From assembly GCA_016840465.1 (NCBI GenBank), contig JAEOSH010000038.1, positions 1 to 21,774 on the forward strand: DNA of 21,774 nt, written 5' to 3'. The position numbers and the translations under genes were made by a program. The notes beneath the pieces were generated by a model. The model made no database searches and was not told where the DNA came from. It saw only the letters and a program-made list of their open reading frames with translations. The DNA comes from Candidatus Baldrarchaeum yapensis (lineage in GTDB: Archaea; Asgardarchaeota; Baldrarchaeia; Baldrarchaeales; Baldrarchaeaceae). Below, piece by piece: positions 7,463 through 14,948 of the stretch (positions are counted from its first letter, which is position 1; every line of letters starts with the position of its first letter).

Positions 7463-7954
7463 TTACCATACGATCTCTTTCAGTGTGAGCACTTCCACGC
7501 CGATAAGTTCTTTTATTCTCTTCCTCTTTCTTGCTAGGCTTCTCTCATCGGTCGTGACAACAGGAACATCGCATTTGAATGCCAAAATCAAATAGGGAAC
7601 ATCTTTTGGCTCTATTTCCAATATTTGTGCGATCATCAGTATCTCAGGCCTTCTTCTCATCATGTTAATCAGATCATCGGTAATAGGATGAATAAAGTCC
7701 TTCACGACGTTGTCCGAATTTAAAATTCTCCAAAAAGATCTTTCAAGTTCTAAGGGGTCACGACGGATTTCTATGGCCACCCTCTTCAACACCCTCGTAA
7801 CCTCAGCAACTACATAGCTGTTTACTACGACTTTACATTCTCCTTTAAGGCACCTTGAAATCAGGTCCATTGCGTCCCGAGAAGTCCCTAAAAGTCCATA
7901 AATCCACACATTAGCGTCGAGTACTAACGTTTTCGCCTTTGAGGAGTTTTTCAA
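7463..7954 (-). CDS. vapC: PIN-domain (VapC-like) toxin
   Basis: LVLDANV, VVAEV, PKDVPYL and VVTTDER (acidic PIN residues); overlaps the upstream RHH gene. Confidence 0.82.
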   Translation of the reverse strand: MKNSSKAKTLVLDANVWIYGLLGTSRDAMDLISRCLKGECKVVVNSYVVAEVTRVLKRVAIEIRRDPLELERSFWRILNSDNVVKDFIHPITDDLINMMRRRPEILMIAQILEIEPKDVPYLILAFKCDVPVVTTDERSLARKRKRIKELIGVEVLTLKEIVW

Positions 7955-8234
7955 GTTCCTCCCTGCCTTCTCTTAATGCCTTCTCGACAACCTCTTTCGG
8001 TACCTTTAATTCAAGTAACCGCTTTAAGGCATCAAAGGGATCCCCTCTCTCATTTGAGAGGACGTCCATTGTGTATAATCCCAGTAGGCCTATATTCTTC
8101 CGTAATATTGCGTCTCTGACAGCCTCCCTAATAAATTCAGCTTTACCCGTATATCCAAGCTCTTTAACAAGTTCACTCACTAATCTATCGAGGTCTTTAC
8201 TCACTTTTATCGTCCACACAACTGACAATGTCAA
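7911..8234 (-). CDS. Ribbon-helix-helix (CopG/VapB-like) antitoxin
   Basis: VVWTIKVSKDLDRLVSELVKELGYTGKAEFIREAVRD is a beta-strand/helix/helix pattern. Start moved to TTG 8234 (or 8228) behind GGAGGG; the ORF-track extension to 8297 runs through the operator repeats. Confidence 0.8.
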   Translation of the reverse strand: MTLSVVWTIKVSKDLDRLVSELVKELGYTGKAEFIREAVRDAILRKNIGLLGLYTMDVLSNERGDPFDALKRLLELKVPKEVVEKALREGREELEKLLKGENVSTRR

Positions 8235-8245
8235 ACCCTCCAGCG

Positions 8246-8281
8246 GAAATACCTCAGTATTTAAGAAATACCTCGGTATTT
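8246..8281. promoter_or_regulatory. Tandem palindromic operator GAAATAC-CTCR-GTATTT x2
   Basis: 17-bp direct repeats at 8246-8262 and 8265-8281 (1 mismatch), each containing AAATAC-N4-GTATTT; immediately upstream of the RHH gene. Confidence 0.75.
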
Positions 8282-8340
8282 TTTTAATTTTCTCCAAGGA
8301 GGTGAAAATCTCATGTTATTATTTATCGGCATAAATCGAT

Positions 8341-9088: not shown

Positions 9089-9598
9089 ATGACTATGGAT
9101 GAGGGCCCGGGTCTGAGAAAAGGCCTGGAGCACGTGCCGGAGAAGTTCAGGGACGCGGTTTCGGAGTTTTTAGAATTTTTGAAGGAGAAGTTTGGGGAAA
9201 AACTGGTATCCGTCGTGGTATATGGATCCGTTGCGCGGAGCACGTACAGGGAGGGGAGTGATGTCGACATCCTTGTGGTCTGCGAGAACTTCCCGGAAAG
9301 ACTTCTGGAGCGGATAGACCTGTTCGTGGACAAGAAGTTCGAGATCGCGGTCGAGAGGGGAGTGAGGATTTCCGTGATGCCCCTCTCCATGGAGGAGGCG
9401 AGATGCAACCAGCCAATATACCTCGACATGGCGTTCGAGGGGATCATACTCTACGATAAGAACGGATTCATTGAAAACGTGCTTAAGAACCTCAGGAGGA
9501 AACTTGAGGAGCTGGGCGCTGAAAGGGTAAGGTACGGGCGCTGGTACCTGTGGAAGCTAAAGCGGAACATCAAAGTGGGAGAGGTAATAAGGATATGA
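9089..9598 (+). CDS. Minimal nucleotidyltransferase (MNT) antitoxin
   Basis: YGSVARSTYREGSDVD is GSx10DxD; ATGA overlap with the downstream HEPN gene. Confidence 0.9.
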   Translation: MTMDEGPGLRKGLEHVPEKFRDAVSEFLEFLKEKFGEKLVSVVVYGSVARSTYREGSDVDILVVCENFPERLLERIDLFVDKKFEIAVERGVRISVMPLSMEEARCNQPIYLDMAFEGIILYDKNGFIENVLKNLRRKLEELGAERVRYGRWYLWKLKRNIKVGEVIRI

Positions 9599-10051
9599 TC
9601 TGTGATAAAGAGGCCGAATATCTGCTTAAAAAGGCAAAACGTGAGATTTTTACTGCGAGGAGAAATCTTGAGGACGGTCTTTATCCCGAGGCTGTTTATG
9701 ATGCTCAAAGGGCCGCTGAAAAGGCCATGAAAGCGGCGATAAGAATCACTGGACGGGAGTATCCAAGAAATCACGACCCATCTGGAGTATTTGGTGAAAT
9801 CATGCTTAAAGATCTGAAGAACGAACTGCCCAAAGAACTTCTCAAAAGTTACTAAATTGGGGCGTGCAATGAACAGGCTCGCCGATATGAGGTTTGTAGC
9901 AGAATATCCGATTGAGAAGGGCGACGAAGTAGTGCCGCCGTGGGAAGAAATAGGGAGAAAGGATGCGGAGGAGGCAATAAACGCAGCTGAAGAGATAATT
10001 TCATGGGTTGAGGACTTCATAAAATGGTGGAGAAAACGCGGCAAAAAGTAG
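9595..10051 (+). pseudogene. HEPN-domain protein split by a +1 frameshift
   Basis: The 5' part from ATG 9595 (YLLKKAKREIFTARRNLEDGLYPEAVYDAQRAAEKAMKA...YPRNHD) stops at 9855. The 3' part (KLGRAMNRLADMRFVAEYP...DAEEAINAAEEII) is in the next frame. Removing one A from the A4 run at 9844-9847 fuses them. Confidence 0.82.
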
Positions 10052-10347: not shown

Positions 10348-11286
10348 ATGAATTTGGAAAGGGTTCGAAAGGCCTTAGAAAAGTTGGGGCTTCCAGGTCG
10401 TGACCTCTACGAACTTCCCACGTCGGAGAAGAGGTTCCCCGACGGGTGTCATTATCGTATTGAGATATCCGGCGTCGAAAGGCCGAACGTTCTTGAGGCC
10501 GTGATAAAGGAGTCGGAAAAGCGTGATATGCCGGTGCACAGACTGATCAGTATGGTGATGGGCTCCACGCTCCTCAGCGAGAAGGAGTTGAGAGAGTTTG
10601 CGCAAATGGCGGCGGACGCCAAGATGGAGGTGATAGTAACCCCAGGACCCCGCCCAACATGGGATGTTGGAAGACAAATAATAACCTCTGAGGGCGCCCT
10701 CTCGGGGCTGAGGCATAGAGGAGCGGATCAACTCGCATACGTGATCGCTGACATAATGAGGGCCATAGACATAGGATTTCGGGGATTCCTCGTGACTGAT
10801 GAGGGCCTTCTGTGGGTACTAAACGAGTTAAAGAAGATGGGTGAAATTCCGAAGGACGTCGTGTTCAAGGTATCGATATTCGCCGGGCACGGAAACCCTG
10901 CGGGGGCAAAAGTTCTAGAGATGTTGGGTGCGTCCACATTCAACCCGGTGGGAGATCTAACCCTCCCGCAACTTGCGGCGATGAGAAAGGTGATCAATAT
11001 ACCCATGGACATACATGTGTACCTGTTCGACTCATTCGGAGGCTTCGTGAGGTTCTACGAGTGCCCCGAGATCATAAGGGTCGCCGCGCCGTGCTACTTC
11101 AAGATAGAGCCGGGTCCCAGCGTTGCAACACTGTACAAGCCGTGGGCAAACCCCGACCACCTGGCGTTCCTCGCTAGGGAGAAGGTGAAGTACGCGGAGA
11201 TCATAAGGGACATTGTTGAAAAGAACTACCCCGAGGCAAAACTCTCGGAAAGAGGTCCCTCCGATCTCGCAATTCCAAAACCATAA
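10348..11286 (+). CDS. Uncharacterised TIM-barrel protein, peptidase-U32-like family
   Basis: Clean 313-aa ORF with GAGGT before ATG 10348. Segments SEKRFPDG.HYRIEI, GFRGFLVTDEGLLWVL, FKVS...GHGNP, DLTLPQLAAMR...IPMDIH and GGFVRFYE.PEI resemble proteins usually labelled U32-like. Recognised from memory; function unknown. Confidence 0.6.
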   Translation: MNLERVRKALEKLGLPGRDLYELPTSEKRFPDGCHYRIEISGVERPNVLEAVIKESEKRDMPVHRLISMVMGSTLLSEKELREFAQMAADAKMEVIVTPGPRPTWDVGRQIITSEGALSGLRHRGADQLAYVIADIMRAIDIGFRGFLVTDEGLLWVLNELKKMGEIPKDVVFKVSIFAGHGNPAGAKVLEMLGASTFNPVGDLTLPQLAAMRKVINIPMDIHVYLFDSFGGFVRFYECPEIIRVAAPCYFKIEPGPSVATLYKPWANPDHLAFLAREKVKYAEIIRDIVEKNYPEAKLSERGPSDLAIPKP

Positions 11287-11301: not shown

Positions 11302-12714
11302 ATGGCAAGGTTGCACGAAGTTAAAGGAATCCTTCCCGCCCTCGTTACACCTTTCAAAAAGGACGAAAGTATAGACGAACAGGCCCTCAGAGACCTGGTG
11401 AACTTCGTCATAGAGAAGGGAGTGCACGGAGTCGTTCCCGTGGGAACCACGGGTGAGTTCATGTACATGAAGCCGGAAGAGAGGGAAAAAGTGTTCAAAA
11501 TAGTGGTGGACGAGGTAAACGGAAGAGTTCCCGTAATAGCCGGATGCGGAGCCAGCGGAACCGATATTGCACTAGATCTCGTAAAGAGAGCGGAAGATAT
11601 TGGGGCGGACGCCGCACTCGTTGTTTCTCCATTTTACATTGCACCATGGGACAAGGGCGTATTCGAACACTTCCGCAGGATATGTTCGTCCACGGACCTG
11701 CCGATCGTCGTTTACAACATACCTCAGTGTACCGGATACTTCATAAGCGGAAAAGTGATCGAGGATCTGGCCGAATTCGAGAACGTCATAGCGCTCAAGG
11801 ATAGTAGTGGGAGCATTGCGTACATACTCGAGGTTATCGAGAGGACCGAAGGTAAGTTGAACGTACTGGTCGGGCATGACGAGATCGTAATGGCGGCCCT
11901 CATGGCGGGGGCTTCCGGGGCAATCCTCGCATCCGCAAACGTCATACCCGAAGTTTGGTGCCAGTTGTACGACGCCGTTCAACGAGGAGATATCACGAAG
12001 GCCCGGAAGCTTCAACTTGGTGCACAAAAGGTTGCAAGGATAATCACCAGATACGGCGGACCGGTGGCCGTTAAGGCCGCATTGGGAATGCGCGGCATCA
12101 AGGTTGGTAAGACCAGGAGGCCTTTGGTTAGCGGTGGGGTTCTTTCCTGGGAAGACAGGGAGGAGTTAAGGCTGGAGCTGGAGAAACTCGGAGTGCTGAA
12201 GCCCTCTTACGGAAGGGTTGAGGAGTTTCCAAAGGAGGAATTTTCCGATATTGGGCTTACCCCTGAAGTCATCGGAAAACACGGCATGCGAGTTGCCAAA
12301 TGTAGCGCAGGATCTGGAACCGAAGAGGTCATTCTAAGCGCGGTAGTCGGAACCCTAGAGAGCCCCATTTCTGAGGCGTTTGCCCTCGCGTTGTCACTAC
12401 CCAGAGAGGGGTATGAAGCACTGACCGCAATACTGGAACCGAACCTCATGGTACGGCCGGCAACGCTCATAGTTCCCGCAGTTAAAGTCGAAAATATGAG
12501 GCAGGCAAGCATGATTTACGGCCCTGTGCAGGCGGCTGTTGCCAAGGCAGTTGCGGACTCTTTAGAGGAAGGAACGATTCCTAAGGAGTTCGCGGAGACG
12601 GGACTGATGATAGTTAAGGTGAGAATACACCCGAACGCCTTGAATAGAAAGATGATCTACGGGAACACGTACGAGGCCATGCGGACCATAATTAAGGAAA
12701 TATGGGGAGGATGA
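11302..12714 (+). CDS. DapA/NAL-family class I aldolase fused to a C-terminal Fae (formaldehyde-activating enzyme) domain, subunit A
   Basis: Aldolase motifs GTTGEF, PFY, YNIP and LKDSSG. From ~12286 a Fae-like domain: [38 protein letters not shown]. Confidence 0.88.
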
Positions 12715-12720
12715 GTTGTT

Positions 12721-14190
12721 ATGAGCAAGAAGTTCTGGCCGAGAGGAGTAATACCGGCTCTGGTCACTCCATTTACGAAAGACGGCAAGATAGATGAGGA
12801 GTCCTTCAGGAGGCTAATCGATCACCTTATAGAGCAAGGGGTCACCGGAATAGTCCCCGCCGGAACGACCGGGGAGTTCATGTACATGAAGCCTGAGGAG
12901 CGCAAAAGGGTGATCGAAATAGCAGTGGAACAGGCGGACGGCAGGGTTCCCGTAATTGCTGGAACGGGGGCGGCATCAACAAAATTAGCGTTAGAATTTA
13001 CAAAACATGCCGAGGATGTTGGAGCGGATGCGGCACTGGTAGTAACTCCGTACTATGTGCGCCCGACCGATAAGGAGGTATATGAGCACTTCGAGAAAAT
13101 CGCAACATCCGTCGGCATACCCATTGTCATGTACAACATACCGCAGTGCACGGGGTTCATGATGCAGTGGTGGCTGGTGGAGGGACTCGCTGAAATAGAT
13201 AATATAGTGGGAATTAAGGACTCCAGCGGTGACATGCGCTTTCTGTGCTCGCTTTTCGAGAAGGTGGGCGGTAAGATTTCCATAATATGTGGGCATGATG
13301 AGATTGCCGCTGCAGCGCTATTGGCTGGTGCGGATGGTGTGATCCTCGCGAGTGCAAACGTTCTGCCCGACATATGGTTGAAGATCTACAATGACGTTAA
13401 GGAGGGGAGAATCGAAAGTGTTAGGAAGACCCAGCGCAGAATGCAAAAACTGCTCAGGATTCTGGTGAGGGGCGGCGCCCTTGCAATAAAAGAGGCACTC
13501 AGAATGATGAGCCTACCGAGCGGTTACCCCAGACTTCCACTAATTCTCGGTGACGTGTTCGGTTATGAGCATTGGGAGGAGATGAGGATAGAGCTGGAGG
13601 GCATCGGAAAGATTCCAAAGTCTGAGGTGACATTTGAGGTACGCGGAAAAACCATCAAGAGTATGGTGCCGGCAATTCCGGAGACTCCAAGAAAAATTTC
13701 GAATCTGACGTTTAGGGTGGGAGAAGGCTTCGCCGGCCCTCCGATATTCGAGGTTGCACATATAGACCTCATCCTGGGACTTAAGGACGGCCCAGTTGGT
13801 AGAGTGTGCGAAAAAATTCTAAAGCAACCGCAAAAGGGACACGAACCGAAAGTGGTGATGGAGCGCCCGTTCACGGTCTTGGTTCCAACTGTCACCGTGA
13901 GGACGGAGAGACACGCGAGATTGGTATACGAGCATGCCTTAAACGGCGTAAAAATGGGTGTGGAAGCGAGTATAAATGATGGATTTCTGCCGGAGCCGTT
14001 GCTTGACGATCTGGTGCTAATAGCAAATGTGTTTGTGCACCCGGTTGCATCTAATGCGAGAAGGGTCATGCTGAATAACTTTAAGGCCATGAGATATGCT
14101 ATCAGGAAAGCAATCGAGGGAAGACCGACAGCAGACGCGATATTCATGTACAAGGAGTCCGCACGTCACCCGTTCAGGTATACACCCTGA
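12721..14190 (+). CDS. DapA/NAL-family class I aldolase fused to a C-terminal Fae domain, subunit B
   Basis: Aldolase motifs GTTGEF, PYY, YNIP and IKDSSG. From ~13711 a Fae-like domain: VGEG..G...EVAHIDLILG.KDGPVG, NVFVHP, AIRKAIEG.P, RHPF. Confidence 0.9.
   Translation: MSKKFWPRGVIPALVTPFTKDGKIDEESFRRLIDHLIEQGVTGIVPAGTTGEFMYMKPEERKRVIEIAVEQADGRVPVIAGTGAASTKLALEFTKHAEDVGADAALVVTPYYVRPTDKEVYEHFEKIATSVGIPIVMYNIPQCTGFMMQWWLVEGLAEIDNIVGIKDSSGDMRFLCSLFEKVGGKISIICGHDEIAAAALLAGADGVILASANVLPDIWLKIYNDVKEGRIESVRKTQRRMQKLLRILVRGGALAIKEALRMMSLPSGYPRLPLILGDVFGYEHWEEMRIELEGIGKIPKSEVTFEVRGKTIKSMVPAIPETPRKISNLTFRVGEGFAGPPIFEVAHIDLILGLKDGPVGRVCEKILKQPQKGHEPKVVMERPFTVLVPTVTVRTERHARLVYEHALNGVKMGVEASINDGFLPEPLLDDLVLIANVFVHPVASNARRVMLNNFKAMRYAIRKAIEGRPTADAIFMYKESARHPFRYTP

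Positions 14191-14225: not shown

Positions 14226-14948
<723 letters not shown>

Follow-up and report, generated by a model that had tools for sequence, protein, structure and literature searches.

Two adjacent genes in a 21,774-nucleotide (nt) stretch of DNA from Candidatus Baldrarchaeum yapensis (contig JAEOSH010000038.1, positions 1–21,774, referred to below as the window) each encode an N-terminal class I aldolase barrel of the DHDPS fold and a C-terminal Fae domain. We call them gene A (11302..12714, + strand, 470 amino acids (aa)) and gene B (12721..14190, + strand, 489 aa). The results presented below make it probable that proteins A and B associate obligately as the subunits of a single heteromeric enzyme, in which a Fae-type active site has been split between paralogues. 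From sequence comparisons and a predicted complex, we infer that the two chains associate physically, that there is one site per pair, and that the ring formed by canonical Fae has been lost. Canonical Fae is a homopentamer that has its sites between adjacent identical subunits, and its His22 is the proposed catalytic residue.

Both C-terminal domains belong to the Fae family. With the Fae of M. extorquens (1y5y) as the reference for all Fae alignments, phmmer E-values were 6e-18 for A and 3e-18 for B, and both proteins exceeded the family cut-offs of Pfam (PF08714, 128.2 bits for A and 109 bits for B; cut-off, 27) and NCBIfam (TIGR03126, 126.4 and 122.3 bits, respectively; cut-off, 118.05). 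In A, the Pfam DHDPS match (257 bits) covers residues 7–277, and the Fae match covers residues 338–465, which correspond to profile positions 8–135 of 159. In B, the DHDPS match (273 bits) covers residues 8–274, and the Fae match covers residues 333–485, corresponding to profile positions 1–158. The two proteins are 43% identical to each other, and in each of them a linker of ∼35 residues joins the aldolase and Fae domains.

Alignment to the reference placed different lesions in the two Fae domains. The A domain (12313..12696, + strand) aligned without gaps, but it has EEVILSA in place of EVAHIDL, which puts Ile344 (ATT, 12331–12333) and Ser346 at the positions of His22 and Asp24, and its chain ends ∼25 residues early, without the C-terminal arm that carries the HPF motif. 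Retained in A are the PNL loop (ILEPNL, 12430–12447) and the GPxQ segment (YGPVQ, 12517–12531), in which Gln410 is the equivalent of Gln88. The B domain (13717..14190, + strand) keeps the VGEG turn (VGEGFAG, 13717–13737), EVAHIDL (13750–13770) with His347 (CAT, 13759–13761) and Asp349 at the His22 and Asp24 positions, and the C-terminal arm (RHPF, 14164–14175). This domain has lost the PNL loop through a 6-residue deletion (∼13849–13869), and it has YEHAL (13927–13941) in place of FGPAQ. No single chain combines the PNL loop, GPxQ, and the HPF arm, as A is without the arm and B is without the loop and GPxQ; the full motif set (VGEG, His22, Asp24, PNL loop, GPxQ, and HPF arm) is obtained only from A and B together. 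At the position of Lys71, A has Ala and B has Thr. These alignments and the reading of the codons confirm an initial annotation of the window, which had described the loss of the histidine (ATT at 12331) and of the HPF tail from A (12286–12714) with retention of its PNL segment, the retention of VGEG, the histidine (CAT at 13759), and RHPF in B with loss of the PNL loop and EHAL in place of GPAQ, and the substitution of the Lys71 equivalent in both.

The same division of motifs recurs across the family of fused proteins. Searches with A and with B each returned thousands of matches, and the best 120 of each were taken. All of these best matches combine DHDPS and Fae domains; most are from metagenome-assembled genomes (MAGs) of Bathyarchaeota, with Thermoplasmata, Methanomassiliicoccales, Chloroflexota, and Asgard archaea represented as well. 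A tree of the 240 fusions separated three clades: A (∼477 aa), B (∼493 aa), and C (∼492 aa), the last with a fully canonical Fae domain. Gene A falls in the first clade and gene B in the second. The A and B clades are each monophyletic, and all fusions together are monophyletic with respect to both canonical Fae and stand-alone DapA-like proteins. The position of class C is unstable, as it differs between the two domain trees, and C may be either the ancestral form or a paralogue.

Residue states were counted for the three classes (A, 57 sequences; B, 62; C, 51) and for 9 sequences of canonical archaeal Fae. His22 is present in 62/62 B and 51/51 C sequences and in 22/57 A sequences (Q, S, R, Y, or I is found in the others), and Asp24 is present in 62/62 B, 50/51 C, and 16/57 A sequences. 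The tail histidine of the HPF arm is found in 61 of the 62 B and 50 of the 51 C sequences and in none of the 57 A sequences. Gly85, Pro86, and Gln88 are invariant in A (57/57 each) and in C (51/51 each); in B, Gly85 is found in 2/62 and Gln88 in 6/62 sequences, and Pro86 is outside the six most common residues at its position. The PNL proline is kept in 53/57 A and 51/51 C sequences and is deleted in 62/62 B sequences. Because the same states are found in 57 A-type and 62 B-type sequences of several phyla, the complementary loss is not due to chance: at the scale of the family, A and B each keep the half that the other has lost, and the recurrence in other genomes that had been proposed as a check is borne out. 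The Lys71 position follows another pattern. Since it is occupied by Thr in 51/51 of the complete class C fusions and by Lys in 9/9 canonical archaeal Fae sequences, its change is characteristic of all the fused proteins and has no part in the complementarity between A and B.

The two types are also linked in genomes. We called and classed all fusion open reading frames (ORFs) at 80 loci from species-representative genomes. Gene A lies directly upstream of gene B, on the same strand, at 26/26 loci for which DNA upstream of B was available (25 fetched loci and the window), and the hosts of these loci are Bathyarchaeia, Thermoplasmata, Anaerolineae and other Chloroflexota, Thorarchaeota, and one Sandaracinaceae MAG. 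No second fusion was found within the flanks of any of the 14 class C loci. In one Anaerolineae order, 15/18 genomes contain Fae matches, 14 of these 15 contain both types, and the two are adjacent in 13. In one family of the window's phylum (f31), 79/86 genomes contain Fae matches, and nearly all of these genomes have exactly two weak matches and are without a canonical Fae. Adjacent A-then-B genes were found in 5/5 sampled genomes of this family (Thorarchaeota). The distances among A proteins and those among their partner B proteins (19 of each) are correlated with r = 0.96 (Mantel test, 0 of 2000); the A/B pair travels as a unit. The A and B types are thus not independent across genomes, and the fusion that occurs as a solo gene is the complete class C.

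As a structural test of the split site, complex prediction was performed with the Fae domains of A (residues 320–470) and B (residues 320–489), using class alignments in three runs. The A:B heterodimer had an ipSAE score of 0.86 in all three runs, compared with 0.00 for the best of three controls; the mark used for this score is reached by 58/80 solved complexes and 2/110 mismatched pairs, counts that hold only roughly here because our own alignments were used. The runs had at least 86% of their contacts in common, and the partner pLDDT (predicted local distance difference test) was at least 85. In the model, the contacts of chain A are residues 377–385 (ILEPNLMVR), Gly407, Gln410–Ala411, and the following helix; those of chain B are residues 333–337 (VGEGF), His347, Asp349, and the tail at 467–484, including Arg-His-Pro. 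Because the degenerate segments (EEVILSA in A; YEHAL and the deletion site in B) fall outside this predicted interface, the retained motifs would lie on opposite faces that are joined in the B-to-A orientation, with the His/Asp strand and tail of B against the PNL loop and GPVQ of A. This is the arrangement that the initial annotation had anticipated.

As an independent test based on conservation, the two predicted faces were mapped onto the 240-sequence alignment, and the entropy of their columns was compared. In class A, entropy is 0.78 for the face that A uses and 1.46 for the face that B uses, in which 9/38 columns are deleted (p = 8e-4). In class B, the values are 2.02 for the A-used face (6/32 columns deleted) and 0.80 for the B-used face (p = 2e-7). 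In class C, they are 0.46 and 0.38, respectively (p = 0.38). The unused faces are therefore relaxed in A and B and not in C. To judge from the sequences, the reciprocal A-to-B interface, which is without arm and loop, appears to be drifting, and because it has lost the tail (arm) and the loop, the canonical five-membered ring most likely no longer closes. Such a loss of the ring would probably also resolve an earlier puzzle, namely how a domain derived from a pentamer can be combined with a barrel that is usually tetrameric. The linkage, the co-inheritance, the predicted interface, and the face-specific conservation together support the proposal that the A/B pair forms a heteromer with a full site at the A/B interface.

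In the model we propose, the ancestor would have been a single aldolase–Fae fusion with Fae sites built from two neighboring subunits, as in canonical Fae, and after a duplication each copy would have kept one interface face. From B would come the C-terminal arm, the VGEG turn, and the strand on which His347 and Asp349 stand for His22 and Asp24, and from A the PNL loop together with the GPxQ segment, where Gln410 stands for Gln88. At the B-to-A interface these parts would make up one complete Fae-type site, and the reciprocal A-to-B interface would decay. The simplest architecture would have A:B Fae heterodimers on a DHDPS-type core, either an A:B aldolase dimer or an A2B2 tetramer. By analogy with Fae-Hps, the composite site would most likely condense formaldehyde on, or release it from, a reduced pterin, which in this archaeon would be methylene-tetrahydromethanopterin (methylene-H4MPT). 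The barrels would consume or generate that formaldehyde by aldol chemistry with a 2-oxo acid held as a Schiff base, in the simplest case pyruvate + formaldehyde <-> 4-hydroxy-2-oxobutanoate. Both the choice of substrates and the direction in which the reaction runs are speculative.

Several points weigh against an obligate A/B enzyme with a split formaldehyde site. The A:B model was probably guided by the solved Fae homopentamer, in which case its score shows likeness rather than binding, and it does not tell whether A:B would be preferred over A:A or B:B. That a site takes its His22 from one subunit and its Gln88 from another is an assignment based on the predicted interface and the published abstract. 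In one Anaerolineae genome (G410), the A and B genes are on separate contigs. Across the entire fused family, other residues take the place of Lys71, which does not vary in canonical Fae, and no conserved neighbor at 43 related loci indicates a substrate. The pterin is a further difficulty. Four Anaerolineae genomes (G400, G401, G405, and G411, which hold loci L018 and L027 and their relatives) have no Fae domains other than those of A and B, yet beta-RFAP synthase is absent from all four of these hosts, and Mch is absent from the two that were checked for it (G400 and G401). Because hosts with A/B as their sole Fae are without these enzymes, H4MPT cannot be the universal ligand, and tetrahydrofolate or another nucleophile is possible in Anaerolineae. 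The window genome does encode Mch and beta-RFAP synthase, and their presence implies that H4MPT is made in this organism. A further, canonical Fae domain (234 bits) is encoded elsewhere in this genome, in a 416-aa frame whose length is that of a Fae-Hps fusion.

Some of these points would be expected if the Fae domains did not catalyze formaldehyde condensation at all and the A:B Fae pair served as a heterodimerization or regulatory, ligand-sensing module for barrels with unrelated chemistry. Bacterial hosts without H4MPT synthesis and Mch, the family-wide replacement of Lys71, and the absence of conserved one-carbon (C1) genes beside the pair all fit such a module. We consider it improbable, as the invariance of B's His22 and Asp24 and of A's Gly85, Pro86, and Gln88 in different phyla would be more typical of residues that bind a ligand or catalyze a reaction than of a mere contact surface, and as the solo class C proteins keep the full canonical set of Fae motifs. 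We likewise give little weight to the possibility that B alone has a working Fae-type site and that the Fae domain of A is a dead scaffold or chaperone-like partner (a "prozyme") with no residue lining the site. The constant linkage of A and B is predicted by this explanation too, and the proposed catalytic His and Asp are indeed kept in 62/62 B sequences and not in A. It would, however, leave B with an active site that is without the PNL loop and GPxQ, both of which are invariant in canonical and solo forms. The conservation of Gly85, Pro86, Gln88, and the PNL proline in A goes beyond the needs of a scaffold, and in the predicted interface these kept segments of A adjoin the His/Asp strand of B.

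A closed mixed Fae ring, for example A2B3 or an even-numbered one, in which only some interfaces are active, is very unlikely. Canonical Fae is a pentamer (1Y5Y), and class C keeps both faces conserved, but the arm is missing from 57/57 A proteins and the PNL loop from 62/62 B proteins, so that the reciprocal interface would be without much of what is predicted to form it. Moreover, entropy within the domain is highest on the unused faces, and two genes in a 1:1 ratio are hard to reconcile with a ring of five members. That the database annotation is right, and that both proteins are independent homo-oligomeric DapA enzymes for lysine synthesis with an extra domain, is extremely unlikely, as the equivalog scores and nearest structures that favor it (below) are opposed by the strict A–B linkage and complementary loss and by the residues and genomic context described next.

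The aldolase domains of A (11320..12132) and B (12742..13542, both + strand) have the features of class I enzymes of the DHDPS–NAL family. Both exceed the cut-off of the NCBIfam dapA equivalog (TIGR00674; 241.9 bits for A and 245.2 for B, against 206.15), and the solved structures nearest to the barrels are those of DHDPS. The Schiff-base lysine Lys166 (equivalent to Lys161), Thr49/Thr50 (Thr44), Tyr112 (Tyr107), and Tyr138 (Tyr133) are invariant or nearly so in the A and B classes, and GTTGEF, YNIP, and the lysine of KDSSG are invariant in both. In gene A, these features are encoded at 11443–11460 (GTTGEF), 11629–11646 (PFYIAP, with the Tyr107 equivalent), 11713–11736 (YNIPQCTG), and 11791–11811 (ALKDSSG, with Lys166), and a GHDE segment follows at 11872–11883. 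In gene B, they are found at 12862–12879 (GTTGEF), 13048–13065 (PYYVRP), 13132–13155 (YNIPQCTG), 13210–13230 (GIKDSSG, with Lys166), and 13291–13302 (GHDE).

Arg138 of DapA is the residue that binds aspartate semialdehyde. The corresponding position in both proteins is Cys143, in YNIPQCTG, compared with YNVPGRTG in 3pud. The window genome, which is 96% complete, contains no match to DapB (DapB_C) or to DapF (diaminopimelate (DAP) epimerase), and A and B are its only genes of the DHDPS family. Because Arg138 is replaced by Cys and because the genome is without DapB and DapF, the DapA label is not supported, and we conclude that these proteins are not part of the DAP pathway to lysine. Lysine is presumably made by another route in this organism.

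Other roles for the pair were also considered. A function analogous to that of PanB (ketopantoate hydroxymethyltransferase) was suggested by the absence of PanB from four A/B hosts, and no PanB match was found in the 96%-complete window genome; this candidate was rejected when PanB was found in 7/15 A/B-bearing Anaerolineae genomes. Replacement of the aspartate route to homoserine was not supported either, as homoserine dehydrogenase is present in the window genome and in three of the four other hosts. A more specific idea is that the A/B complex and the solo class C protein are natural hydroxymethyl-transferring aldolases, in which formaldehyde released or captured from a methylene-pterin at the composite Fae site would be passed directly to the Schiff-base barrel for the interconversion of pyruvate plus a C1 unit and 4-hydroxy-2-oxobutanoate, with H4MPT as the carrier in archaea and perhaps tetrahydrofolate (H4F) in Chloroflexota. 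We regard this as an unlikely but tenable proposal. If it is true, a previously undescribed link from C1 to C4 compounds would be common among Asgard archaea, Bathyarchaeia, and anaerobic Chloroflexota, and the engineered homoserine cycle would have a natural counterpart in it.

Comparison with known systems helps to place the A/B pair. The C-terminal domains match the family of the M. extorquens enzyme (1Y5Y/1Y60; PF08714 and TIGR03126) above its cut-offs, but that enzyme is a stand-alone homopentamer with all motifs in each subunit, whereas in A/B the motifs are split over two aldolase-fused chains and Lys71 is replaced; in addition, the A/B pair occurs in bacteria without H4MPT synthesis. 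The best functional analogy is the bifunctional Fae-Hps of methanogens and other archaea (NF009833), in which, as in A/B, the partner of Fae is an enzyme of aldolase type for which formaldehyde is a product or a substrate. In Fae-Hps, however, this partner is a hexulose-phosphate synthase (Hps) domain of the OMPDC fold at the C terminus, whereas A and B have a DHDPS-fold class I pyruvate-type aldolase at the N terminus, are encoded by two genes, and would form a heteromer with a split Fae site. In the NF009833 comparison, the Fae part alone matches, and the scores (113.7 bits for A and 80.1 for B) are far below the cut-off of 274.

With the DHDPS–NAL family (PF00701; DapA, YagE/YjhH, NAL, and KDG aldolases), A and B share the fold, the Schiff-base lysine, the threonines of GTTGE, and the equivalents of Tyr107 and Tyr133. 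They differ from DapA in having Cys in place of Arg138, the GHDE segment, an added C-terminal Fae domain, and a genome without the DAP pathway. Judged at the residue level, neither chain alone qualifies as Fae or as DapA. The solo class C proteins, from Bathyarchaeia, Promethearchaeota, and Hermodarchaeota MAGs, share with A/B the architecture, YNIPQC and KDSSG, and the change of Lys71 to Thr; in contrast to A/B, they have a complete Fae domain with both faces conserved, are encoded by a gene that stands alone, and are presumably homo-oligomeric. The closest evolutionary parallel is provided by trypanosomatid deoxyhypusine synthase and the AdoMetDC–prozyme complex, heteromers of paralogues with complementary impaired sites. 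Their evolutionary logic (a site at an interface, duplication, complementary loss, and an obligate heteromer) is the one proposed here for A/B, although the folds and chemistry are unrelated and, in A/B, the loss appears to break a cyclic oligomer as well. No paper on an aldolase–Fae (DapA–Fae) fusion was found in the literature collection that was searched.

These findings bear on hundreds of subsurface archaeal and bacterial genomes in which such genes are labeled DapA, a label supported neither by sequence nor by genomic context. The A/B pair represents the only Fae domains in Thorarchaeota and in some Anaerolineae genomes. If the split-site heteromer is correct, it would be a clear example from nature of paralogues that share out an active site located at an interface, with a solo form of ancestral type surviving for comparison, and of a cyclic pentamer that was turned into a heterodimer. 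It would also be an enzyme that ties one-carbon carriers to 2-oxo-acid metabolism in lineages that are central to debates on the physiology of Asgard archaea and Bathyarchaeia.

The distribution of the pair within the window's own lineage points to a particular history. When the pair at 11302–14190 was compared with those at five other loci (L004, L018, L034, L038, and L039), it was closer to the pairs of Bathyarchaeota and Chloroflexota (53–59% identity) than to those of Thorarchaeota (∼46–50%), despite the phylum that it shares with Thorarchaeota. The class to which the window genome belongs comprises five genomes; the other four are without the A/B pair and have only canonical-type Fae in a frame of ∼400–420 aa. 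Because the pair is closer to those of Bathyarchaeota and Chloroflexota and is absent from the four other class members, these results suggest that the two genes were acquired laterally, as a unit, in the window's genome.

Two observations concern class C. At eight class C loci (L010, L011, L013, L020, L024, L026, L036, and L043), a pentamer-forming domain and a dimer- or tetramer-forming barrel are combined in one chain, an arrangement that could close only as a large symmetric assembly, such as a D5 decamer or a cage. On a Bathyarchaeota chromosome (G403; locus L033, 6004–7483), the class C gene is split into two overlapping ORFs, and the canonical-type Fae match is split too, which reflects either frameshift errors in the assembly or real pseudogenes.

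In the window, gene U (10348..11286), A, B, and a gene for an archaeal-type triosephosphate isomerase (14262..14948; NCBIfam NF003302, 335 bits), which begins 71 nt downstream of B, form a series of four closely spaced genes on the + strand. The start of B is 6 nt from the stop codon of A, and a GGAGG sequence lies within the 3' end of A. The two genes are in one frame, separated by TGA GTT GTT (12712–12723), and read-through of the TGA would produce a 962-aa A–B polypeptide. This shared frame is probably a coincidence, as the A–B junctions of other loci vary from overlaps to gaps of up to ∼500 nt. The adjacency of triosephosphate isomerase was seen at this window alone and did not recur across the 43 related loci. 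At these loci, the analysis of conserved neighbors yielded no informative partner; TrmI, MBL hydrolase, M20 peptidase, S-adenosylhomocysteine (SAH) hydrolase, and nitroreductase are each specific to a lineage.

Gene U encodes a conserved protein of 312–315 aa, an accessory neighbor of aldolase–Fae genes, which matched no Pfam or NCBIfam family. Some of its neighbors in the Atlas carry a peptidase U32 label. An AF2 (AlphaFold2) model of the protein (pLDDT 75) is a predicted TIM barrel; its best folds in the Protein Data Bank, of modest similarity only, are class II (metal) aldolases, with template modeling (TM) scores of 0.47–0.56, and a U32 structure appears at rank 40. The protein is 50–69% identical to proteins encoded beside aldolase–Fae genes in Chloroflexota, Sandaracinaceae, and Asgard loci, and gene U adjoins A/B or C genes at six loci. 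The possibility that it is an obligate third subunit was rejected, as it is found in just 5/15 A/B-bearing Anaerolineae genomes and is unlinked to the pair there.

The genes that flank this series in the window are unrelated. Downstream lies a convergent gene for a membrane phosphodiesterase-like protein, and upstream lie toxin–antitoxin-like genes and a DNA glycosylase gene. A PIN-domain gene and its ribbon-helix-helix partner (7463–8294) are likely a toxin–antitoxin module upstream of the operon, and a nucleotidyltransferase gene that is overlapped by a minus-strand ORF without a family (9089–10044) is likely another.

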